Origin: an uncultured Verrucomicrobiae bacterium
GTDB lineage: Bacteria > Verrucomicrobiota > Verrucomicrobiia > Chthoniobacterales > UBA10450
DNA: 64,000 bases
Assembly: GCA_963834385.1 (NCBI GenBank)
Contig: CAWIBO010000005.1
Span: forward strand, 748,415-812,414
Direction of reading: 5' to 3'
Part shown: positions 55,001-61,000 of the stretch, in pieces
Layout: every line of letters starts with the position of its first letter
How positions within the stretch are numbered: position 1 is the first letter of the stretch
Position numbers: made by a program

Positions 55001-58000
55001 TGCCGTCCTCGTCGGGCACACCACCGTCCGCCGGGATAATGTCCGGCTGGGCGTGCCCGACGCCGCCATGCGCAAGGAGCGCAGCAAACGCGGGCAGACC
55101 GAGTATCCGCTGCGGGTGATCGTTTCCAACGAAGGCCGGATCGACCCGGCCCTGAACGTTTTCCAGACCGATATCTCGCCGATCCTGATTTTTTCCACGA
55201 CGCGCATGCCGCGGAAGACGCAGAAGGCGCTGCGGGAGAAGGCCACCCTGCACCTGAGCTCGGAGCGGACGGTCGACCTCGCCTGGATGCTGCATCAGCT
55301 CCGGTGCGATTACCGGGTGCGCCATGTGGCCTGTGAAGGGGGCGCCTCGCTTTTCCGCGCCCTCCTCGAGCACGACCTGGTGGACCAGTTGAACCTGACC
55401 ATCGCGCCGTTTCTTTTTGGTGGCGCCGACGCCCCCACCCTGACCGGCCTCGACAAGACGCTTCCTGCCCCGGAGCGTGGAACTGACCCTCAAGGAGATG
55501 CGGGTGGTGGAGGAGGAATGTTTTCTGACCTACCGCGTGAAACGGCGTAAGTTGGGGAAAGGCAGAAGACTAATTAGGAAACCAGGAACACAGGAAAAGA
55601 AATAGGAGTTAAAGCCCGCCACTGGTCACCGATTCACCGATCACTGATCACCGTCTCATTCTTACCTTCTCCCTTTCCCAGACATGCGCAAGACCAACTC
55701 CATCATCATCCACGCGCCGCGGCCGTTGATCTTCGAGACCGCCGCCAACCTCGAGCTTTGGCCGAAGATCCTGCCGCATTACCGTTACATCACCTACCTC
55801 GAGCGCGGGCCCGACCGGAACCATGTGATCATGGCAGCCACGCGGTCCGGCATTCCCATCTCCTGGGAATCGGAGCAGGTGATCGACCGCGAGAAGTTCG
55901 AGATCCGGTTTCATCACCTCAAGGCTTTCACCAAGGGGATGGATGTCGTCTGGACCCTGACCGAGACGCCGGCCGGCGTGCTCGTCGAGATCAGGCACGA
56001 CCTGAAATTTCGGGTCCCGTTCCTGGCGCCAATCGCCGAGCCGATCATCGGCGATTTTTTCATCCATGCCGTGGCCAATCGCACACTTGCGCTGCATGAA
56101 AGCGTATCTCGAGAACATGCCGGGCGCGTAACATCGGTGTGAAACACCCGCGCAGAGCCGTCATCACCGGGCTTGGACCGATCACCTGCATCGGCACCGG
56201 CCGCGAAGCGTTCTGGAAGGGATTGCGGGCGGAACGGAGCGGGATTCGGCGGGTGGCCTCCTTCGACACCACCGGGTTCAACGCCCACTGCGGGGGCGAG
56301 ATCACCGATTGGAACCCCGAGGAACATTTCCCGCCGCATCGCCTGAAACGGCTCGACCGTTACGCCCAGTTCGCCGTCGGCTCGGCCCGGCTGGCGCTGG
56401 CCGATGCCGGGCTTTCCTACTCGCGCGAGGACCCGCAGGCGCGCGTCGGGGTCAGCTTCGGCACCGCCCTTGGGGGCGTCGCCGGCGCCGAGCAACAGCA
56501 CACTCATTTCCTGAAGAAAGGGACGCGCGGGGTCAACCAGACCCTCGCCGTCCAGGTCTTTGGCGGGTCGGCCCACTCCAACATCGCGCTCGAATTCGGC
56601 CTGCGCGGCGCCGGCACGACCAACTCGAACAGTTGCGCCAGCGGCACCGTCGCCGTGGGCGAGGCGCTCCGCTATATCCGCGACGATTTTGCCGACGTCA
56701 TGATCGCCGGCGGGGCGGAAGCGCCGCTCAGTCCGCTGACCTTTGGCGCTTTCGCCATTATCAAGACCATGAGCCAATGGGACGGCGACGCCGCCGTGGC
56801 CTGTCGCCCATTTGATGCGCAGCGCGACGGCTTTGTCATGGGGGAAGGCGCCGCCGCCCTCGTGGTGGAGGAACTCGAGCACGCGCGCGCGCGCGGCGCG
56901 CATATCTACGGCGAGATTCTCGGGTTCAGCCTGACCAATGACGCCTGGCACATGACGACGCCGTTGCCCGCGGCGGAATCTTCCGTGGCGGCGATGCGCC
57001 ATGCTTTGCGCGACGCGGGACGCGCTCCCGACGAGGTTGATTACGTGAACGCGCATGCCAGTTCGACCCAACTGGGCGACGCCGCCGAGGTGGTGGCGCT
57101 GCGGGAAGTCTTTGGCGGGCATTTGCCCCGCGTCCCGGTGAGCGGGACGAAGCCGTATACCGGTCACCCGCTCGGTGCGACCGGGGCGATGGAAGCGGTC
57201 ATTTGCGCGCTGGCCCTCGAGCACCAATGGATCCCGCCCACCCTGAACCGTGATCATCCCGACCCGGCCTGCGACATCGACACGGTGCCGCACCACGGCC
57301 GTGAGGCCAGGCTGCAGACAATTCTCAGCAACGCCTTTGGCTTCGGCGGGATCAACGCCTGCATCGTCCTCGGCGCCGCGCCGTAGCCTACTCCCTTCTC
57401 GTCCTGCTCCTGATCCTGATCTTGATCCTGCTCCTCTTTTTTAGACAGGATTAACAGGATTTTACAGGATTGGGGGATAGGTAGTCTTAAGCTTTAGGTT
57501 TTAAGCTTTAAGGGCAAGGTGGGCGGCACGGACCGCTCATCTGCCGAACAACGTTGCAGCGTGCCCCTGCTTAAAACTTAAGACTTAGGAGAGCTTTACA
57601 GCGGAGGGACGAGCTTCTGCTCGTCCGCGGACCTGCGGAAGCAGGTCCCTCCGTTACCGATCACCGACCCTCCGACTTCGCCCCCAATAACAAATAACGG
57701 TTAACCAATAACCAACTCCCGACCCCCGACCTCCGCTCACCCGCCCTCTTCCAGCATGTCCGGCCGGTTCCGGCGGGTGCGTGCCAGGCCCTGTTCCTCG
57801 CGCCACCGGGCGATGCGGACATGATCGCCGGAGAGGAGAACATCGGGGATCTTCCAGCCGCGAAACTCGGCCGGGCGGGTATACTGCGGCCCTTCCAGGA
57901 CGCCTTTGCAGAAGGAGTCGTCCCGGGCCGACTGTTCGTCGCCGAGGACGCCGGGAAGAAGCCGCACCACCGCGTCCACCAGGACCGCCGCCGCGAGGGC

Positions 58001-61000
58001 GCCGTTGGTCAGGACATAATCGCCAATGGAAATCTCCTCATCGACGAGGTGTTCCACCACCCGGTGATCCACGCCTTCGTAATGCCCGCAGACGATGACG
58101 AGGTGCGGCAGGGCCGCCAGTTGGCCGGCGCGGACCTGATTAAAGCGCCCGCCCTGCGGGGTCATGAGGATGACCCGGCTTTCCGGTGTCCGCAGTTCCT
58201 CGACCGCGGCAAAGATCGGTTCGGGCTTCAGAACCATGCCCTGGCCGCCGCCGAAAGGGGCGTCATCCACCACGCGGTGTTTGTCGGTGGCCCAGCGACG
58301 GAGATCGTGCACGTGCAGGTCGAGCAGCCCTTTGTCGCGGGCGCGCTTGAGCATGCTCTCGCCGAGGGGACCCGCGCAGATGGCGGGGAAGATCGTGATG
58401 ATGTCGACGCGCATGGTGGTCGCTCGCGCAGGGTTATCCGCGGGCGGTTTCGCGAGGGTCAACCGCCTCCCACGGTCATTCGATGATCTCGATCGTGGCT
58501 TTTTGTCCGTGGCGCGCCGCTGAGCTGGCCAGGAGCGAACGGATGGCCTGGATGGTCTGGCCGTTGCGGCCGATGATCCGGCCCACATCGCTCTGGCGCA
58601 TGGCCACCCGGAAGACAACGACACGATCAGAAGGAGTCTCGGTGATGATTGCTTCCTCGGGGAATTCCACCAGCTGGCGAATGATGAATTCGAGGAACTG
58701 TTTCATGGGACGACGGTAGCCGGTTTTTCAGCCGCTGGCCAGCGGCTGAAGCTTTAGGCTTTAAGTTTTAAGCTTTAAGTGGGCCGATCCGCTGAGGACA
58801 GCGGACGCTACAGGTTTCGAGCTAAAACTTAAGACTTAAGACTTAAAACTCCGGAGGGACGAGCTTCCGCTCGTCCAGGACCTGCGGAAGCAGGTCCCTC
58901 CGCCGACCTCCGACCTCCGACTCCGACACCGATAACCGATACCGATACCGATAACCGCGCCGTCCCGGCGCTAAGAAACGGCCGCGGGCGTCGGTTCCGC
59001 CGAGGCTTCGGCGCCCTTTTTGCGGTTCTTCTTGATCAGGCTGCGGACGGTGTCCGAAGGCTGGGCGCCTTTGCTGATCCAATGCTCGGCCCGGTCGAGG
59101 TCGAGCTTGCTGTTGTCGCCCGGCTTTTTCGGATCGTAGGTCCCGATGATCTCGATGAATTTGCCGTCGCGCGGGCTGCGGCTGTCCGCCACCACCACCT
59201 TGTAATAGGGGCGGTTTTTCGCGCCTTCTCTGCGTAGTCTGATTGAAACTGCCATACTTAGTTTTTCATTCGCGCCATTTGCGCCATCATTTTTTTCATC
59301 TTGCCCGCGTTCTTCATCATCTTGCGCATCTGGTTGAACCGCTGCAGCAAATCGTTCACTTCCGTGACCGTGCTGCCGCTGCCCCGCGCGATGCGTTGAC
59401 GGCGCCGCGCGTTCAAAATATCGGGCCGGGTGCGCTCTTCGCGCGTCATCGAAAGCACTATGGCTTCCGTGCGCTTGATCTGCCTTTCGTCCACGGAAAG
59501 GCCCGGCAAGTTACTCATCCCGGGCAGCATGCCAAGAATATTCTCCAGGGGGCCCATTTTCCGCATCATCCTGAACTGGGCCAGGAAATCGTTGAAATCG
59601 AAGGAGGCGGTCTTGAGCTTCTTCTCCAGGCGGGCGGCTTCCTCCTCGTCGATCGCCTCGGCCGCCTTCTCGACCAGACCCACAATGTCGCCCATTCCGA
59701 GAATCCGGCCCGCCAGGCGGTCCGGCACGAAAACCTCAAATTGGTCCAGCTTTTCGCCCACGCCGGCGAACTTGATCGGCCGCTGGGTCACCTCCCGCAT
59801 GGAGAGAGCCGCCCCGCCCCGGGCGTCACCATCGAGCTTGGTCAGGACGATCCCGGTAATGCCAAGCGCCTCGTGGAAATGGGTGGCCACGCTGACGGCC
59901 TGCTGGCCGGTGGCGGCATCGGCCACGAGCAGGACTTCCTGCGGCTGAAGAAATTCCTTCAGCTCTTTCAGTTCCTGGACAAGAGCCACGTCGATTTCCT
60001 GCCGGCCGGCAGTGTCGAAGATCTGGACATTGCCATTCTGCCCTTCCGCCCAGGCCAGCGCGGCTTTGGCCGAGCGTTTCACGTCCTTTTCCTCGGGCGG
60101 CGGCGTGTAAACCGGCACGTCCACCTGCCCAGCCAGGGTGGCCAGCTGCTGGATCGCGGCCGGTCGCTGCAAATCCGAGGCGATCAGGAGCGGCGCGCGC
60201 CCCTGCTTCTTCAGCAGGGCGGCGAGCTTGGCCGAGGAGGTGGTCTTGCCGGCGCCGTTGAGCCCGACCATGAGGATCCGGGCCGGTTTATCGAGGTTCA
60301 GCGGGGCGGCATCGGCCCCGAGCAGGCTGGTCAGCTCATCGTGAAAAATCTTCACCATCTGCTGGCCGGGGGTGACGCTCCGGAGCACCTCCTCGCCCAG
60401 CGCCTTTTCCTTCACCCGCCCGATAAAGGTTTTGGCCACCTGGTAATCGACGTCGGCCTCGAGCAGGGCCAGGCGCACCTGGCGGAGGGCGTCGTTGACG
60501 TTCTCCTCGCTGATGGTGCCGTGGCCCCGGAGGTCCTTGAAAATGTCCTGAAGTTTGTCGCCGAGCTGGGAAAACATGGAGACCGGACGAGTAGCACGGA
60601 TGGAAGCGCGGTGCCACTCGGGCTGGTTCTGAGCTTTAGGTTTTAAGCTTTAAGTGGGGCCGGGTTCTGAGCTTTAAGCTTTAGGTTTTAAGCTTTAAGT
60701 CGGGGAGCGGGCAAGCCCGGTTACCGCTCTCCCGCCATTCGCCCGCTGTAGCGTGCGCCGTCACCGGCGCATCCCCTCCTGCTCCTGCTCCTAATCCTGA
60801 TCCTGCTCCTCTCCTGGAAAATTCCCAGATCGGCTGGGGACAGGGGCCCGTCTCGACTCTTGACGCCGGGATGGGTAATCGGTTAGCACTTCGAGACTTA
60901 TGAAAACCAAGCTGCTCGCGGTGGCGGTGTCTCTCGGTCTCATCTCGGGCCTTTGGGCCGGGGAAACCTACTCGGGAAAAGAAGTCCGCGAGACCACGTC

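Follow-up and report, generated by a model that had tools for sequence, protein, structure and literature searches.

Apparent loss of the 30S maturation factors RimM and RimP, and often Era, in a Verrucomicrobiae bacterium and across the PVC superphylum

The trmD cluster and the search for RimM

The window, a 64-kb stretch of the study genome (2.91 Mb, 89.6% complete, with frameshift-like errors), displays the gene order ffh-rpsP-khpA-trmD with every gene on the minus strand. The cluster opens with ffh (59258..60577), recognized by its open reading frame and SRP GTPase motifs and occupying the same position as in E. coli. It is followed by rpsP (58971..59255), encoding the 94-aa ribosomal protein bS16 (PF00886, E 9.8e-27), by khpA (58476..58706), encoding a KH-domain RNA-binding protein of 76 aa (PF13083, E 9.5e-20), and by trmD (57737..58414), encoding the tRNA m1G37 methyltransferase of 225 aa (PF01746, E 5.8e-63). 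The start of the latter was placed at the ATG at 58414, and the 295-aa frame originating from 58624 was rejected as an over-extension. Compared with the known trmD operon (ffh-rpsP-[khpA]-rimM-trmD-rplS), the gene order is preserved, whereas rimM appears to have been excised and rplS is found outside the cluster on another contig.

Two spacers of this cluster deserve attention. The 264 nt separating rpsP from khpA (58707..58970) contain a dispersed 51-nt hairpin repeat (58852-58902; about 24 copies in the genome, a second one at 57602-57653) and no gene, in agreement with the preliminary description, which had reported no open reading frame there. That description had also located the empty rimM slot between these two genes. 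The slot is indeed empty, but its true position is the 61-nt khpA-trmD spacer on the same strand (58415..58475), where a RimM gene would require about 510-550 nt. The corresponding slot measures 511-546 nt in all four RimM-bearing outgroup loci examined, and the spacer 5' of trmD is 2-144 nt long in 19 of 25 PVC loci, the remaining six being uninformative as trmD is cut off or stands apart from rpsP.

RimM is described in reviews as conserved in bacteria, and such assembly helpers as near-universal. Searches with Pfam and with a full-length profile returned no RimM match in the study genome. The earlier statement that RimM occurs in none of the sampled Verrucomicrobiota now extends to 0 of 201 genomes, with matches in 10 of 10 control bacteria. 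The concern that very divergent homologues might be missed proved well founded, as Pfam overlooked a genuine, divergent RimM in all three Cloacimonadota; it does not rescue a RimM for the PVC bacteria. As a sensitivity control, a full-length profile was built without Cloacimonadota-like rows. This leave-out profile recovered all three Cloacimonadota proteins (spiked ones at E ~1e-12), the most divergent RimM met being found with about 37 bits to spare, while the best open reading frame of the study genome reached E 1.7. Three of four half-length RimM proteins still scored above every frame of the study genome. Over 80 genomes the same profile produced six matches, all in outgroups, with 0 of 30 in Verrucomicrobiota and 0 of 40 in further PVC-type genomes. 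RimM is missing from PVC genomes of up to 10.8 Mb. It was not found in Poribacteria either (0/4), which makes the dating of its loss to the PVC root tentative. The sole PRC-barrel frame of the study genome was considered as a RimM candidate and rejected, its 315-aa product beginning much like a signal peptide and ending in a low-complexity tail.

RimP and the leader hairpin before nusA

No RimP match was obtained in the study genome with Pfam or a purpose-built profile, and nusA is preceded by a divergent gene and not by rimP, whose absence there had previously been noted. Among the 201 Verrucomicrobiota, one genome matched, against 10 of 10 control bacteria, so that the earlier claim of a complete absence from the phylum holds apart from this single case. 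The match is a probable contaminant: it resides on a 1,950-bp contig, and 15 other genomes of the genus are negative. The start of NusA on that contig shows no match to the NusA of the study genome, and the rimP-nusA/lpxD-lpxC order is one that we take to be Bacteroidales-like. A further RimP, in a record labelled 'Planctomycetia', was reassigned as Omnitrophota-like on account of a 16S identity of 79.6% to Ca. Aceula and of its tgt-trmD order. The loss of RimP spans the PVC superphylum, Omnitrophota excepted, and includes genomes of 6-11 Mb.

The possibility that PVC bacteria retain RimM and RimP at other loci, in forms so diverged that no profile recognizes them, was weighed against these data. 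The failure of Pfam with Cloacimonadota RimM speaks in its favor, pairwise BLAST misses even the RbfA of the study genome, and the purpose-built RimP profile missed the short RimP on the 1,950-bp contig that Pfam had caught, the sensitivity for RimP being less well calibrated. Such an explanation nevertheless requires two genes at once to have moved and to have diverged extremely. The margin of the leave-out profile and the nature of the only PRC-barrel protein also argue against it, and we regard it as very improbable.

The strict rimP-leader motif occurs as a single copy in the study genome, 23 nt 5' of nusA. By definition it is a G-rich/C-rich GGG...CCC hairpin with a U-run, lying 4-130 nt 5' of whichever gene opens the nusA operon. 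The motif was defined after the sequences had been seen, and a looser version matches 56 places in the study genome. It was observed 30-100 nt 5' of nusA in 6/6 other Verrucomicrobiota and 5' of rimP in three of six RimP-bearing genomes, and was not found 5' of nusA in two planctomycetes and one chlamydia. Rfam detected no member of its rimP family in the study genome or in 16 loci, even though six of these carry rimP. The motif was described by Naville and Gautheret in 2010 (PMC2965389), who propose that it is read by NusA and not by RimP. In comparison with the rimP-nusA-infB-rbfA operon of that work, the order and the GGG...CCC-U-run hairpin are kept here and rimP appears excised. The hairpin so close to nusA may accordingly mark a clean rimP deletion. 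A predicted leader standing before nusA in genomes devoid of rimP also fits the proposal that NusA reads it, and would constitute a natural test of which protein does so.

Era, RsgA, RsmG, EngB and the factors retained

Era was not matched in the study genome by Pfam or by an Era-KH profile with which E. coli Era scores 4.6e-36. None of the proteins was found to combine a GTPase domain with a KH domain at the C-terminus, as Era does. In the phylum, Era is present in 69 of 201 genomes, all belonging to classes other than that of the study genome, which bears out its reported absence from this class. The 132 genomes without it range up to about 6 Mb, and none of three planctomycetes of 6.0-10.8 Mb possesses it.

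Profile searches for RsgA, RsmG and EngB were likewise negative in the study genome, where mnmG is directly followed by plsY with no adjoining rsmG. The preliminary description was correct in this respect, all six factors being without a match, but its small-sample rates (1/5, 1/5 and 0/5) understate how patchy the three genes are: RsgA occurs in 69, RsmG in 98 and EngB in 30 of the 201 Verrucomicrobiota. Among control bacteria, RsgA matched in 7/10 and EngB in 6/10. These are separate patchy losses and not the loss of one kit.

Other factors are retained. In a survey comprising 28 E. coli queries and targeted profiles, RbfA, RsmA/KsgA, YbeY and RsfS were present in the study genome, the first three as already reported. 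MMR_HSR1 gave 12 matches in 11 open reading frames, attributed from motifs and BLAST to Der, Obg, MnmE (two), HflX (two), YchF, IF2, EF-Tu, BipA and a dynamin-like protein. The single 16S gene, unlinked from 23S, is full length (1,555 nt, against 1,534 nt for the matching span): h31, h33, the 530 loop, h44 and h45 are not shortened, and h31, the 530 loop, h44, h45 and the anti-SD are canonical.

This set had initially been described as a CPR-like stripped kit. According to Amikura et al. 2025 (PMC12641178), rimM, rimP, rsmG, rsgA and era are found in 0.4, 0.4, 8.5, 6.1 and 19.4% of CPR genomes, against 94.9, 92.3, 97.7, 83.9 and 97.3% of other bacteria, respectively. CPR bacteria are depicted there with genomes of 0.5-1.5 Mb, shortened 16S helices or rRNA introns and about half the usual number of 100 listed ribosome-biogenesis factors, and often lack Der, Obg, BipA, HflX, RbfA, RsmA and RsfS. 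The study genome resembles them in the five genes not found. It differs in keeping der, obg, bipA, hflX, rbfA, rsmA and rsfS, in its full-length 16S and in its size, the genomes with these losses covering 0.9-11 Mb. The CPR-like framing was therefore abandoned, given a PVC-wide loss that includes genomes of 6-11 Mb, an intact 16S and the retention of the 50S GTPases.

A related explanation holds that reduction has streamlined the small genome of a slow grower, or that the absences are artefacts of an assembly both incomplete and error-prone. All six factors are missing in six of six genomes of the order, which measure 0.9-3.2 Mb; the lone, unlinked 16S gene and the frameshift-like errors point in the same direction, and relaxed selection in slow growers may well account for the latest losses (rsgA, rsmG, engB). 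However, relatives that are 99-100% complete lack the same genes, the absence of RimM and RimP extends to genomes of up to 10.8 Mb, the 16S rRNA shows no truncation, and the GTPases of the 50S subunit have been retained. As a general account it is extremely unlikely, and for RimM, RimP and Era it is ruled out by the large and complete genomes.

Proposed history and significance

Profiles and synteny together make it probable that the genes have really been lost, in old deletions that proceeded step by step and affected whole lineages, and not through genome reduction in this organism. Judging from the genomes searched, the trait is an old one of the whole PVC supergroup, RimM being found in no member and RimP in one branch only. 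The history could be summarized as follows. The rimM gene, whose slot is collapsed, would have dropped out of rpsP-khpA-rimM-trmD by deletion, at the root of the superphylum or close to it. The rimP gene, which headed the nusA-infB-rbfA operon, would then have been removed in Verrucomicrobiota, Chlamydiota and Planctomycetota and kept in Omnitrophota, leaving, in Verrucomicrobiota, the leader terminator of the operon apparently abutting nusA. Next, era would have disappeared again from the class of the study genome, from some sister classes, from large planctomycetes and from chlamydiae. Finally, patchy losses of rsgA, rsmG and engB would have left the order devoid of all six.

The lost factors presumably accelerate or check the folding of the 30S subunit and are not parts of it. 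In E. coli, the loss of rimM is viable and is suppressed by extra RbfA or by changes in S13, S19, h31 or h33b, and IF3 can release RbfA (PMC9032327, PMC3575805). The PVC 30S subunit may thus mature by a factor-light route relying on RbfA, RsmA, YbeY, RNase III and LepA, with IF3 probably releasing RbfA, and minor alterations that became fixed in the rRNA or in proteins of the head, similar to these suppressors, may assist. A comparison of 18 PVC-type with five RimM-bearing 16S sequences revealed no separating column in the head; the only two that separate both sets, 278 and 331, lie outside it, and the study genome keeps the E. coli base at both. In uS19, compared with the mis-extracted Eisenbacteria row left out, the Gly preceding His83 is replaced in 5/5 Verrucomicrobiota, one Omnitrophota and one Poribacteria. 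It is kept in a planctomycete and a chlamydia; the change does not track the loss of RimM and was rejected as a compensator.

A PVC-specific factor might instead have taken over the task of RimM. Foremost among the candidates stands the 51-aa PVC small basic protein (TIGR04137), which would bind rRNA either in the head of the 30S subunit or while it is being processed. It is present in the study genome and in 50 of 54 PVC-type genomes, in 0/10 non-PVC genomes and 0/14 controls, and never together with RimM in the genomes tested. Its neighbors, among 38 frames scanned, include an RsuA/RluB-like pseudouridine synthase in eight loci, ybeY in three chlamydial loci, and single instances of era, trmD and rph. 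On the other hand, the protein has one origin, so that its anti-correlation with RimM amounts to a single event, Poribacteria are devoid of both, and in Omnitrophota it occurs alongside RimP and Era. No rRNA genes adjoin it in the six planctomycete loci scanned. It has moreover been proposed as a substitute for the 50S protein uL30 (PMC7203096, a secondary source quoting Lagkouvardos 2014), and uL30 was not found by BLAST in the study genome. Its fold was predicted without an alignment (pLDDT 73), with no PDB match by sequence, Foldseek or VIA (best Z 2.9 for the last), and prediction of a complex with uS19 scored 0.00 in both runs, giving no usable answer. Such a replacement is considered unlikely. 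A broader and still rather doubtful proposal is that 30S assembly was rewired in the PVC ancestor. RimM would have become dispensable owing to a change fixed in the subunit, or to an RNA-binding factor specific to the lineage (the small basic protein, for instance), and the loss of RimP and even Era would have been made possible in turn.

The PVC-wide loss of otherwise universal genes has been recognized in general terms (PMC10066038, 2023; PMC2474590), and Hou et al. 2008 (PMC2474590) place the loss of about 75 genes in the PVC ancestor; RimM and RimP are named in neither article, supplements included, as far as these are searchable. In the accessible text of Gruffaz and Smirnov 2023 (PMC10582724), Era loss is reported in Chlamydia, Dependentiae and CPR and solely in extremely genome-reduced groups, Planctomycetota being patchy according to a figure legend, with no mention of Verrucomicrobia in the searchable part. 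Both data sets share a secondary loss of era and differ in that the 132 Verrucomicrobiota and three large planctomycetes reported here also lack it. Verrucomicrobia and Planctomycetes are likewise unmentioned in the main text of PMC12641178, whose supplement lists no per-genome factor matrix in its tables, though the pattern may be visible in the heat map of Fig. 2a. More generally, no statement of the PVC RimM/RimP pattern was found in the literature searched, which left most subscription papers out of reach, and marker tables may imply it. In practical terms, rimM, rimP, era and rsmG are apparently flagged as BAC120 markers, and genomes of these lineages would systematically lack them.

RimM, RimP and often Era are apparently lacking in large PVC bacteria that can be cultured and manipulated genetically. 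Transposon and deletion tools exist for Verrucomicrobium spinosum (PMC12283558), and the building of the 30S subunit without these factors, a question raised by CPR bacteria but unanswerable in CPR culture, becomes testable. If the rewiring proposal were true, the 30S subunit would mature by an undescribed route throughout the superphylum, in Akkermansia and planctomycetes as well as in abundant soil bacteria.

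Assembly factors encoded in the genome

Profile searches of the genome (2.91 Mb, 89.6% complete) returned no match to RimM, RimP, Era, RsgA, RsmG or EngB, in keeping with the preliminary description. For one of its proteins, the close relatives carry the name Chthoniobacterales. The MMR_HSR1 profile produced 12 matches in 11 ORFs, which are interpreted here as Der, Obg, MnmE (two), HflX (two), YchF, IF2, EF-Tu, BipA and a dynamin-like protein. The mnmE copies (contigs C2:864085-865542 and C4:1863-3320, the latter contig measuring 10.9 kb) are near-identical, possibly through duplicate assembly, and the hflX genes (C1:24594 and C3:86889) are paralogues. 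Both the circularly permuted GTPase motif and the RsgA zinc finger were searched for in the genome and neither was found. An Era KH-domain profile built from 12 Eras of Verrucomicrobiota recovered a spiked E. coli Era at 4.6e-36, its best ORF in the genome reaching only E 1.1. plsY comes directly after mnmG, and no era was present among the ORFs scanned near rnc and ybeY. RbfA, RsmA (KsgA) and YbeY are retained, as had been claimed, and rnc, lepA, bipA, pnp, rnr and rsfS are also encoded. The reading frame of RsmA runs on without a break into a Nudix/IPP-isomerase-like domain at its C-terminus (contig C3; locus L269:1688-3247).

Frameshift-like breaks in rpsC, rpsE, rplR, rplO and others (C5:222859-233453) suggest indel errors in the assembly, and with several ribosomal protein genes so affected, absence from this genome alone is weak evidence. 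The missing genes are also absent from relatives that are 99-100% complete. In the same region, uS11 appears to carry a long Ala/Lys/Pro-rich N-terminal extension (C5:231897-232805).

The rimM and rimP slots

The genes ffh (59258-60577), rpsP (58971-59255), khpA (58476-58706) and trmD (57737-58414) are all located on the minus strand of the window. In E. coli rimM lies immediately upstream of trmD, whereas here the khpA-trmD space is only 61 nt; in all four loci examined from RimM-bearing outgroups, rimM occupies a space of 511-546 nt at this place. The rimM slot is indeed empty, but it had previously been placed in the rpsP-khpA gap, a segment of 264 nt where no gene was found and which contains a hairpin repeat present about 24 times in the genome. 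The khpA-trmD pair is flanked by a composite dispersed intergenic repeat (57483-57735 and 58746-58944) made of AT-rich TAAGCTT/TAAGAC arrays, a 51-nt hairpin and CCGA repeats. Of 25 PVC trmD loci, six are rearranged or cut; in the other 19, that of genome G197 being taken from its ORF list, rpsP or khpA sits 2-144 nt upstream of trmD. YlqD fills the slot in both Poribacteria loci (L200:1082-1504, L202:2178-2600).

The region upstream of nusA was inspected in 10 further loci, and none showed a gene of a known type and of the size of rimP. A hairpin (RRGTGGG..CCCRCTYTTT) is located 23 nt upstream of the nusA start (C3:209806-209831; L022:11807-11832). The strict pattern, defined post hoc from sequences already seen, is single-copy in the genome, a looser version occurring at 56 places. 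The hairpin is found 30-100 nt upstream of nusA in all six other Verrucomicrobiota and in one further genome (G250), precedes rimP in three of six RimP-bearing genomes, and was not found upstream of nusA in two planctomycetes and one chlamydia. An Rfam search did not catch it; its sequence fits the rimP-leader as described in the available part of PMC2965389. Together with the synteny, it marks the 5' end of the operon and suggests that rimP was cleanly deleted.

Distribution and sensitivity of detection

The phylum was sampled with 201 genomes, namely the present one and 200 others at least 90% complete. RimM was found in none and RimP in one (G135, locus L001), on a probably foreign 1,950-bp contig in a 99%-complete genome; the proposed phylum-wide absence of both factors is upheld. 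Era was present in 69 genomes (cut-off 1e-40), RsgA in 69 (1e-30), RsmG in 98 (1e-15) and EngB in 30 (1e-25). RimM, RimP, Era and RsmG matched in 10/10 control bacteria, RsgA in 7/10 and EngB in 6/10. All Era matches fall outside the class of our organism, where about 66 genomes have none, as had been stated; Era is also missing from families f16 (32 genomes), f23 (17) and f17 (3). All six factors are missing in 6/6 genomes of the order. Era, RsgA, RsmG and EngB are jointly missing in 19/201 genomes and jointly present in none.

A wider sample of named genomes was obtained by a 16S pattern scan (50 used from 80 listed of 119 stretches); their completeness is not given, several being single complete chromosomes by title. 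Pfam RimM matched 0/24 planctomycete-labelled genomes, 0/7 Chlamydiota, 0/5 Omnitrophota, 0/2 further Verrucomicrobiota, 0/4 Poribacteria, 0/3 Cloacimonadota, the single Auribacterota and 'UBP3' genomes neither, and 3/3 Eisenbacteria/Krumholzibacteria. Pfam RimP matched 14/50: Omnitrophota (4/5), Poribacteria (4/4), Cloacimonadota (3/3), Eisenbacteria (2/2) and G213 (L066), a record titled Planctomycetia whose 16S and gene order are Omnitrophota-like. Era was absent from three planctomycetes of 6.0-10.8 Mb and one chlamydia, and present in the one Omnitrophota genome searched.

The caveat that divergent homologues could escape the HMMs proved justified for Pfam, since a 171-172-aa gene in the rimM slot of both Cloacimonadota loci examined scores under its cut-offs; Cloacimonadota thus carry a very divergent RimM at its usual place (L215:2175-2690, L221:2166-2684, L236). 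A full-length RimM profile was built from 144 of 150 diverse representatives, four Cloacimonadota-like rows and two partial matches being dropped, and run unfiltered on the six-frame ORFs of the genome with Cloacimonadota proteins spiked in. The latter were recovered at ~1e-12 and three of four RimM half-proteins scored above every ORF of the genome, the best of which reached E 1.7. Over 80 genomes, the six matches were the three Cloacimonadota and three Eisenbacteria/Krumholzibacteria; the caveat does not restore RimM to PVC-type genomes, with 0/30 Verrucomicrobiota and 0/40 others, nor was any match obtained in four Poribacteria. A full-length RimP profile recovered the 14 genomes already matched by Pfam and none of the Verrucomicrobiota; having missed the short G135 protein, it offers no gain in sensitivity over Pfam.

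Maturation of the small subunit

The 16S rRNA is normal (1,555 nt versus 1,534 nt) with an intact anti-SD. The 16S (C5:409866-411428, L025) and 23S (C2:69583-72443, L026) genes are single, unlinked and far from contig ends, with tRNA-Ala after the 16S and tRNA-Ile about 9 kb away. In loci L045-L101, U takes the place of G at 16S position 331 of the E. coli numbering in 17/18 PVC-type and 2/2 Poribacteria sequences, whereas this genome and the five RimM-bearing sequences have G. A compensating change was looked for in PVC and none was found.

The best candidate replacement for a lost factor is the PVC small basic protein, present in 50/54 PVC-type genomes versus 0/10 others and often adjoining rRNA-processing genes: its gene (C2:455464; L017:1501-1653) lies upstream of an RsuA/RluB-like pseudouridine synthase in this genome, and its neighbours elsewhere include era (G070), trmD (G063), rph (G090) and, in chlamydiae, ybeY. 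However, Poribacteria lack both RimM and this protein, which has been proposed instead as a uL30 substitute (PMC7203096, quoting another paper). BLAST revealed no uL30 between rpsE and rplO (C5:227600-227900) or elsewhere, whereas a COG survey (bioRxiv 2021.01.31.429008), in the part available, describes Verrucomicrobia as free of lineage-wide losses of ribosomal proteins.

Assembly factors are likewise missing in CPR (PMC12641178, in part), but the proposed CPR-like reduction fails on genome size, rRNA length and the retained der, obg, rbfA and rsfS. The Era result in Verrucomicrobiota goes against the statement in the consulted sections of PMC10582724 that Era is lost in extremely reduced groups only, although Planctomycetota are called patchy there. 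According to PMC10066038, PVC systematically lack some universal markers, RimM and RimP not being named in the sections seen; PMC2474590 puts the number of genes lost at the PVC root at about 75, their list not being found in its searchable parts. No statement of the RimM/RimP pattern was found in the literature searched, which excluded most subscription papers; the pattern may show in these, in Fig. 2a of PMC12641178 or in COG, KEGG or GTDB tables.

E. coli can live without rimM, rimP or rsgA; extra RbfA or changes in S13, S19, h31 or h33b suppress the loss of rimM, and RbfA can be released by IF3 (PMC9032327, PMC3575805, both in part). The absence of the six factors is real, robust, wider and older than first proposed, and is not a CPR-like reduction; its interest would be greater if a replacement or rewired assembly route were shown. 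With RbfA, RsmA, YbeY, RNase III and LepA retained, PVC small subunits probably mature by a factor-light route like that of the E. coli mutants, following layered losses that would have begun with RimM, continued with RimP and Era, and ended in patchy RsgA, RsmG and EngB.
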